Sequence record: NC_054933.1 | DNA: 64,000 nt | Strand: one strand, 5' to 3' | Source of the DNA: Escherichia phage teqhad | Part shown: positions 14,899 to 15,354 of the stretch, in pieces | Position numbering within the stretch: the first letter of the stretch is position 1 | How the letters are laid out: the number at the start of each line of letters is the position of its first letter | Notes under the pieces: model-generated | Database searches by the model: none | Seen by the model: only the letters and a program-made list of their open reading frames with translations | What the model was told of the DNA's origin: nothing | Made by a program: the position numbers and the translations under genes

Positions 14899-15354
14899 TT
14901 ATTTTAAATCGTCTGCCCAATCAAGCTTAAGAGGTTCTTTGTATTCACGATCTAATACGACCGGAATTTGTACATCACCGCTAAATGATAAGGGCCCAAC
15001 ATTATAAGACAATGTTATATGCGGTGTGTAATCATCAAAATCATGTGTAGCACCTAGCGCCCGCGCATACATGTGTCGACAGCGCAGATATTCAGAATCT
15101 AGTACAAGTACAAGAGTAGATCCATCTTGTGTTTTCCATACTTCTAAATGTCCAGAAGAAGCTACTTCAAAACTTCCGCTTGATGGAACATACGGAACAT
15201 TTACTCTCGAATAACATATAGTCGAATGAATTTTTTCTCTAGGAACTGGATTAGGAACACGTAAAGAGCGCTGGAGTTCTTCCAGCGCATCAAGTGTTAA
15301 TTCTGAAAACTTAGCTGCTACATAAAGACCCGTTGAAAAGTCTTTAAATTCCAT
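14899..15354 (-). CDS. 57B: 2H-phosphoesterase (T4 57B; Acb1 anti-CBASS nuclease family)
   Basis: 151 aa with two H-x-T/S motifs (HSTICYS, HITLSY); position between ipI and 57A as in T4. Confidence 0.85.

Follow-up and report, generated by a model that had tools for sequence, protein, structure and literature searches.

What does the minus-strand open reading frame at positions 14899 to 15354 of Escherichia phage teqhad encode, and does it belong to a cluster of anti-defense genes? A preliminary description of the window analyzed here (i.e., a stretch of 64,000 nucleotides from NC_054933.1, to which all coordinates refer) had assigned the frame to the 57B/Acb1 family of 2H phosphoesterases. 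This assignment was borne out, and we regard it as virtually certain that the frame is acb1 (T4 gene 57B) of a T4-like phage (Tequatrovirus), encoding an anti-CBASS 2H phosphodiesterase.

Identity of the acb1 product

The frame runs from an ATG at 15354-15352 to a TAA at 14901-14899 and encodes 151 amino acids. Its product matched the Pfam Acb1 model (PF23474) over profile positions 1 to 144 of 144 with 202.7 bits (E value, 2.6e-60; curated cutoff, 27 bits), PHROG 755 with an E value of 5e-68, and, in a phmmer search, the solved structure of Acb1 from Erwinia phage FBB1 (PDB 7T26; also 7T27) with an E value of 4e-62. The last of these matches, which extends over 141 of the 144 residues of 7T26 at 68% identity and with one single-residue gap, identifies the 2H phosphoesterase fold by sequence. 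All sequence-level defining features of the Acb1 family are present in the product, and nothing in the sequence of 14899-15354 speaks against this identity.

An alignment with T4 Acb1, which the preliminary description had proposed as a check, revealed more than mere homology. From its second Met onward, T4 gp57B/Acb1 (NP_049750.1) is identical to the product residue for residue (100% over all 151 residues), and the 12 of 456 nucleotides that differ between the two genes are all synonymous (12 synonymous, 0 nonsynonymous). The gene itself is already known, its protein being identical to T4 Acb1, which had rightly been named as the founding member that degrades cyclic-oligonucleotide signals (Hobbs et al. 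2022, PMC9117128). A megablast search with the acb1 region placed it in Tequatrovirus, with 816 matching phage records and the best matches (vB_Eco_Some and teqskov) approximately 97% identical. At the protein level, Acb1 is present in 1,484 phage records, 497 of which carry it at 99% identity or more.

Catalytic residues, pocket, and lid

The catalytic tetrad of T4 Acb1 consists of H44, T46, H113, and T115; its stacking residues are Y12, W74, F107, and W147, E141 reads the adenine N6, and residues 145-152 form the lid (PMC9117128), the function of which has also been described elsewhere (bioRxiv 10.1101/2025.08.21.671373). In the window, the first catalytic motif is H43-S44-T45 (H44/T46 in T4 numbering; 15220-15228, minus strand), read from the sequence as CATTCGACT, and the second is H112-I113-T114 (H113/T115 in T4 numbering; 15013-15021, minus strand), read as CATATAACA. 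The C-terminal lid, LDWADDLK (residues 144-151; 145-152 in T4; 14902-14925, minus strand), includes the stacking Trp146 and is identical to that of T4. Y11, W73, F106, W146, E140, and the lid residues 144-151 are all present, as in T4. Both motifs, described earlier as retained in the form H-x-T/S, are strictly H-x-T, and they match the catalytic tetrads of FBB1 and T4 Acb1 column for column. Loss of a catalytic His, named beforehand as the observation that would overturn the assignment, was not seen; H43 and H112 are intact in the alignment.

To these sequences we compared homologs at 86% to 36% identity, in an alignment of the acb1 product, FBB1 Acb1, and proteins from Mosigvirus, Bragavirus, Krischvirus, Lazarusvirus, Pseudotevenvirus, and Slopekvirus. 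The tetrad (H43, T45, H112, and T114) and Y11 are invariant in all eight aligned homologs, down to 36% identity. All eight have an aromatic residue at positions 73 (W or F) and 106 (F or Y), E140 is kept in seven (Gln in the other one), and W146 is kept in six, with Lys in the two most distant. FBB1 Acb1 shares the HxT/HxT tetrad, the stacking aromatic positions, and the C-terminal lid with the acb1 product, although it comes from a phage of another host genus and shows a few conservative changes in the pocket (F for W73 and Y for F106). A more remote relative is 2H PDE-9 (PDB 9Q2G, deposited as "Anti-CBASS protein Acb1"), which has the 2H fold and both catalytic His residues and degrades 3'3'-cGAMP. 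Unlike the acb1 product, with which it has a marginal sequence match (E value, 0.004), PDE-9 carries its lid at the N terminus, and it largely spares 2'3'-c-di-AMP, so that it does not trigger Panoptes.

Start codon, gene order, and transcription

At the 5' end of the gene, T4 reads ATGATG and the RefSeq 57B model begins at the first ATG, i.e., one Met earlier than the frame described here, whereas the window and phage ADUt read ATAATG (15352-15357). The second Met is the sole possible acb1 start in the window. Because the first ATG of T4 57B is ATA in both of these phages, the conserved second ATG is suggested to be the real 57B start, and published T4 residue numbers would then be one too high. 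The stop codon of the preceding gene, 57A, is TAA in the window (TGA in T4), and its overlap with the acb1 start is TAATG rather than the ATGA of T4.

Mapping T4 proteins onto the window recovered the T4 gene order on the minus strand: 4, 2, 3, 1, 57A, acb1, the internal-protein gene, trna.4, trna.3, and trna.2. The upstream neighbors of acb1 (encoding gp3, gp1, and gp57A) are therefore those of T4, and an internal-protein gene adjoins it in both phages, although this downstream gene is ipI in T4 and of the Ip6 type here. Gene 57A, encoding a tail-fiber chaperone (15354-15596, minus strand; PF17594 GP57, E value, 2.6e-50; 96% identity to T4 57A), lies directly upstream of acb1 and is preceded by gene 1, encoding a dNMP kinase (15596-16309, minus strand; 97% identity to T4 gp1 over 241 amino acids), the first gene of an apparent 1-57A-acb1 unit. 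These three genes are joined by TAATG stop/start overlaps, the gene 1 stop with the 57A start and the 57A TAA with the acb1 ATG. The order gp3-gp1-57A-acb1 is kept in all six of the other Straboviridae genera named above, and the sequence 3' of acb1 differs in each of them.

A MotA-box middle-promoter-like site (AATGCTTCA, an 11-nucleotide spacer, and TATAAT; 16335-16360, minus strand) was recognized by consensus match between gene 3 and gene 1, in an intergenic sequence that is identical in T4 and nearly identical in phage ADUt. We infer from this arrangement that 1, 57A, and acb1 are probably cotranscribed from a MotA-type middle promoter and translationally coupled. The cGAMP-cleaving activity seen from approximately 15 min of T4 infection (PMC9117128) is consistent with such a middle-mode unit but does not prove it. 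Early expression of acb1, as the preliminary description had it, is not established, the MotA-box match upstream of gene 1 being the sole promoter-like element that feeds acb1. As a candidate late promoter, TATAAATA was found only within gene 1 (15959) and upstream of gene 4 (18306), and neither copy is placed to serve acb1 specifically. A sigma-70 scan of 14300-16500 returned 12 promoter-like sites against 9.3 expected and was uninformative except for one TTTACA-N17-TACTAT site with an upstream TG (see below). No canonical intrinsic terminator was found after acb1 in a terminator scan of the same interval. Two plus-strand frames inside acb1 (15071-15214 and 15129-15221) are short and unsupported.

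The neighboring internal-protein gene

The gene next to acb1 (14587-14817, minus strand) encodes a 76-amino-acid internal (injected) protein of the Ip6 family, with the capsid-targeting peptide MKTYQEFIAE and a match to phrog_8111 ("internal virion protein") at an E value of 1.8e-49. Members of phrog_8111 are annotated as ip6/ipVI in phages VR7, fHoEco02, and GiZh, and Ip6-type proteins occur in 245 phage records at 34 to 100% identity. The preliminary description had placed acb1 directly after a variable ipI-like gene. The adjacency to an internal-protein gene stands, and the rest of that description requires revision: with both genes on the minus strand, acb1 is transcriptionally upstream of 14587-14817, and the neighbor belongs to the Ip6 family (phrog_8111). 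As a candidate ipI homolog, 14587-14817 was rejected: T4 IPI gave a BLASTP E value of 0.076 and aligned with the first 15 residues only (i.e., the targeting peptide). A tblastn search for T4 ipI in the window found no homolog, and mapping of the T4 proteins likewise revealed no homolog of ipI, ipII, or ipIII there. Elsewhere in the window, a 157-amino-acid protein with the targeting peptide MKTYQEFITE (phrog_3155, internal virion protein) is encoded at 5061-5534 (minus strand), between vs.8 and denV. A second 157-amino-acid protein, which begins MKSYTQFLNEA (phrog_2280; 10595-11068, minus strand) and lies between e.8 and the tRNAs, may also be injected.

Conserved acb1 adjoins a variable slot: given the records with Acb1 (497 of 1,484 at 99% identity or more) and those with the Ip6-type protein (245, at identities down to 34%), a conserved enzyme stands beside a variable position. 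This position is bracketed by two similar modules. The first is a hairpin that starts from the acb1 stop codon (14831-14900, minus strand; RNA fold) and encloses the promoter of the next gene in the manner of a promoter-early stem-loop (PeSL). It comprises 70 nucleotides, with a folding energy of -25 kcal/mol (z score, -5.2), and none of 200 shuffled sequences was as stable. The promoter predicted within it for the internal-protein gene (14857-14885, minus strand) is of the early type and was recognized by consensus match as TTTACA-N17-TACTAT with an upstream TG. The promoter module recurs as TTTACT-N17-TACTAT (14557-14585, minus strand; consensus match) downstream of the internal-protein gene and upstream of trna.4, again with a hairpin (14532-14586; z score, -3.9). 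Two repeats also bracket the gene: an exact 22-nucleotide direct repeat (14548-14569 and 14848-14869) and a 16-nucleotide repeat comprising the ribosome-binding site and start codon (14523-14538 and 14815-14830), spaced approximately 300 nucleotides apart.

A role in cassette shuffling has been proposed for PeSLs with the T4/PST consensus TTTACW-N17-TAYWAT (PMC4122927), and both promoter modules around the internal-protein gene fit this architecture and consensus. The Ip6-type gene thus appears to be an independently promoted, swappable internal-protein cassette. The adjacency of Acb1 and ipI in T4 has already been pointed out as an anti-defense island (Hobbs et al. 2022, PMC9117128), in agreement with the clustering of injected and anti-defense functions proposed for this locus in the preliminary description; the "early" part of that proposal is not supported, and an anti-defense role of the neighbor would be an analogy with Ip1, Ip2, and Ip3. 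T4 Ip1, Ip2, and Ip3 are inhibitors of GmrSD type IV restriction enzymes, each with a different target (PMC12373910), and an anti-restriction role for the Ip6-type protein is a reasonable guess by comparison with them. We tentatively propose, as a possibility that we consider rather less than even, that the Ip6-type gene, with a copy of the promoter/hairpin module on either side, is an exchangeable cassette whose product inhibits a further GmrSD-like type IV restriction subtype.

Enzyme function

As the acb1 product is identical to the characterized T4 Acb1, the biochemical and genetic results obtained with T4 apply directly. T4 Acb1 rapidly degrades 3'3'-cGAMP, cUA, cAAA, and cAAG, whereas cGG, cA4, and 3'2'-cGAMP are not degraded; the H44A/H113A mutant is inactive, and cGAMP cleavage is absent from T4 Δacb1 lysates (PMC9117128). 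On CBASS hosts, T4 Δacb1 has a >300-fold replication defect, and it grows normally without CBASS (PMC9117128). Transposon sequencing (HIDEN-SEQ) has independently confirmed that acb1 is conditionally essential on a CBASS host (bioRxiv 10.1101/2025.11.20.689424). Among viral 2H phosphodiesterases, T4 Acb1 is also one of the most promiscuous, and it consumes 2'3'-c-di-AMP (bioRxiv 10.1101/2025.08.21.671373).

The chemistry and the CBASS phenotype were demonstrated on the T4 protein, and protein identity supports carrying both over to the acb1 product of this phage. The product would be a small, metal-independent 2H phosphodiesterase, the U-shaped pocket of which would bind cyclic di- and trinucleotide signals from host CBASS CD-NTases, with the C-terminal lid closing over them. 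The HxT/HxT tetrad would then cut the 3'-5' bond 3' of an adenosine, via a 2',3'-cyclic phosphate intermediate. Once linearized, the signal would no longer activate the CBASS effector, and the infected cell would survive until the phage cycle is complete.

The window also carries vs.4 (3210-3473, minus strand), the gene for the Acb2 cyclic-nucleotide sponge, whose product is 100% identical to that of T4 over 87 amino acids and matches PF24729 (Acb2/Tad1 hairpin; E value, 7e-20). Both T4 anti-CBASS genes (acb1 and vs.4/Acb2) are present in the window, approximately 11.5 kb apart.

Alternative interpretations

Existing annotation favors another function for the acb1 product, namely, that of an RNA-repair enzyme (LigT/2'-5' RNA ligase or cyclic phosphodiesterase) acting primarily on broken RNA ends. 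PHROG 755 and RefSeq label the Acb1 family "RNA ligase," LigT/2'-5' RNA ligase-type 2H phosphoesterases (PF13563) share the superfamily fold and HxT/S motifs with the acb1 product, and the product has a weak match to the Pfam model 2_5_RNA_ligase2. This match is partial and, at 13 bits (E value, 0.11), lies below the family cutoff of 27 bits, in contrast to the score obtained with the Acb1 model, and membership in PF13563 was rejected. LigT-type enzymes act on RNA ends and not on cyclic oligonucleotide signals, whereas the identical T4 protein cleaves cyclic oligonucleotides, and T4 lacking it yields lysates that do not cleave cGAMP, is sensitive to CBASS, and otherwise grows normally. The "RNA ligase" label is an older annotation, and a primary role in RNA repair is very improbable. 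Decay of acb1 into an inactive copy, kept only by its position between conserved genes, was considered because accessory anti-defense genes are often lost. We found no support for it: the frame is unbroken and has kept every catalytic and substrate-binding residue, the changes relative to T4 are synonymous without exception, and the 497 records noted above carry a nearly invariant protein. We regard decay as even less probable than a role in RNA repair.

The remaining question is whether the main selective value of acb1 lies outside CBASS, in other adenosine-containing signals such as the cA3 of type III CRISPR, with promiscuity possibly being a liability when the 2'3'-c-di-AMP decoy is degraded and Panoptes is tripped. 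The cA3/type III CRISPR connection was raised as a possibility by Hobbs et al. (PMC9117128). The consumption of 2'3'-c-di-AMP by T4 Acb1 points in the same direction, as does the finding that the overexpressed enzyme can trigger the decoy-based Panoptes system. However, deleting acb1 from T4 leaves Panoptes defense during infection unchanged, and the CBASS phenotype of the deletion is large and direct. A value outside CBASS would extend the CBASS role rather than replace it, and we consider it unlikely to be the main one, albeit less so than either RNA repair or decay. An anti-CBASS phosphodiesterase remains our reading of acb1.

Other features of the window

A search of the whole window with Rfam returned ten tRNAs only. 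They form a cluster at 11459-13645 (Arg, His, Asn, Tyr, Met/CAT, Thr, Ser, Pro, Gly, and Leu), from which tRNA-Gln and segB are absent. The place of tRNA-Gln in T4 and ADUt is occupied by an HNH endonuclease gene (12413-13045; phrog_14736), which ends 7 nucleotides from tRNA-Leu, and by a 174-amino-acid frame (13121-13645; phrog_2290). The whole tRNA/HNH arrangement is common to only 12 phage records.

The product of the tk.4 homolog (1057-1521, minus strand; macro-domain "phosphatase") is 58% identical to that of T4, whereas its neighbors are 93 to 100% identical, which suggests that the allele of this accessory gene, possibly related to ADP-ribose, was replaced locally. The frames of vs.5 (3463-3684, minus strand) and vs.8 (4380-5031, minus strand) align with the T4 proteins in two different frames. 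They were rejected as pseudogenes, since the window frames (73 and 195 amino acids, respectively) span essentially the whole of their PHROG profiles. Decay in this phage is a less likely cause of the frame difference than an indel in T4 or the T4 gene models themselves.

Implications

The importance of the acb1 identification is small beyond annotation, where it would allow correction of the many records in which the gene is still called "RNA ligase" or "hypothetical protein." With acb1 as in T4, plus Acb2, this phage should resist CBASS systems that use adenosine-containing 3'-5' cyclic di- and trinucleotides, and it should stay exposed to those that use cGG or 3'2'-cGAMP and to decoy-based systems such as Panoptes. 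If the tentative role of the Ip6-type protein is true, the locus would combine a signal-degrading enzyme that stays constant with a slot in which injected anti-restriction proteins are exchanged.
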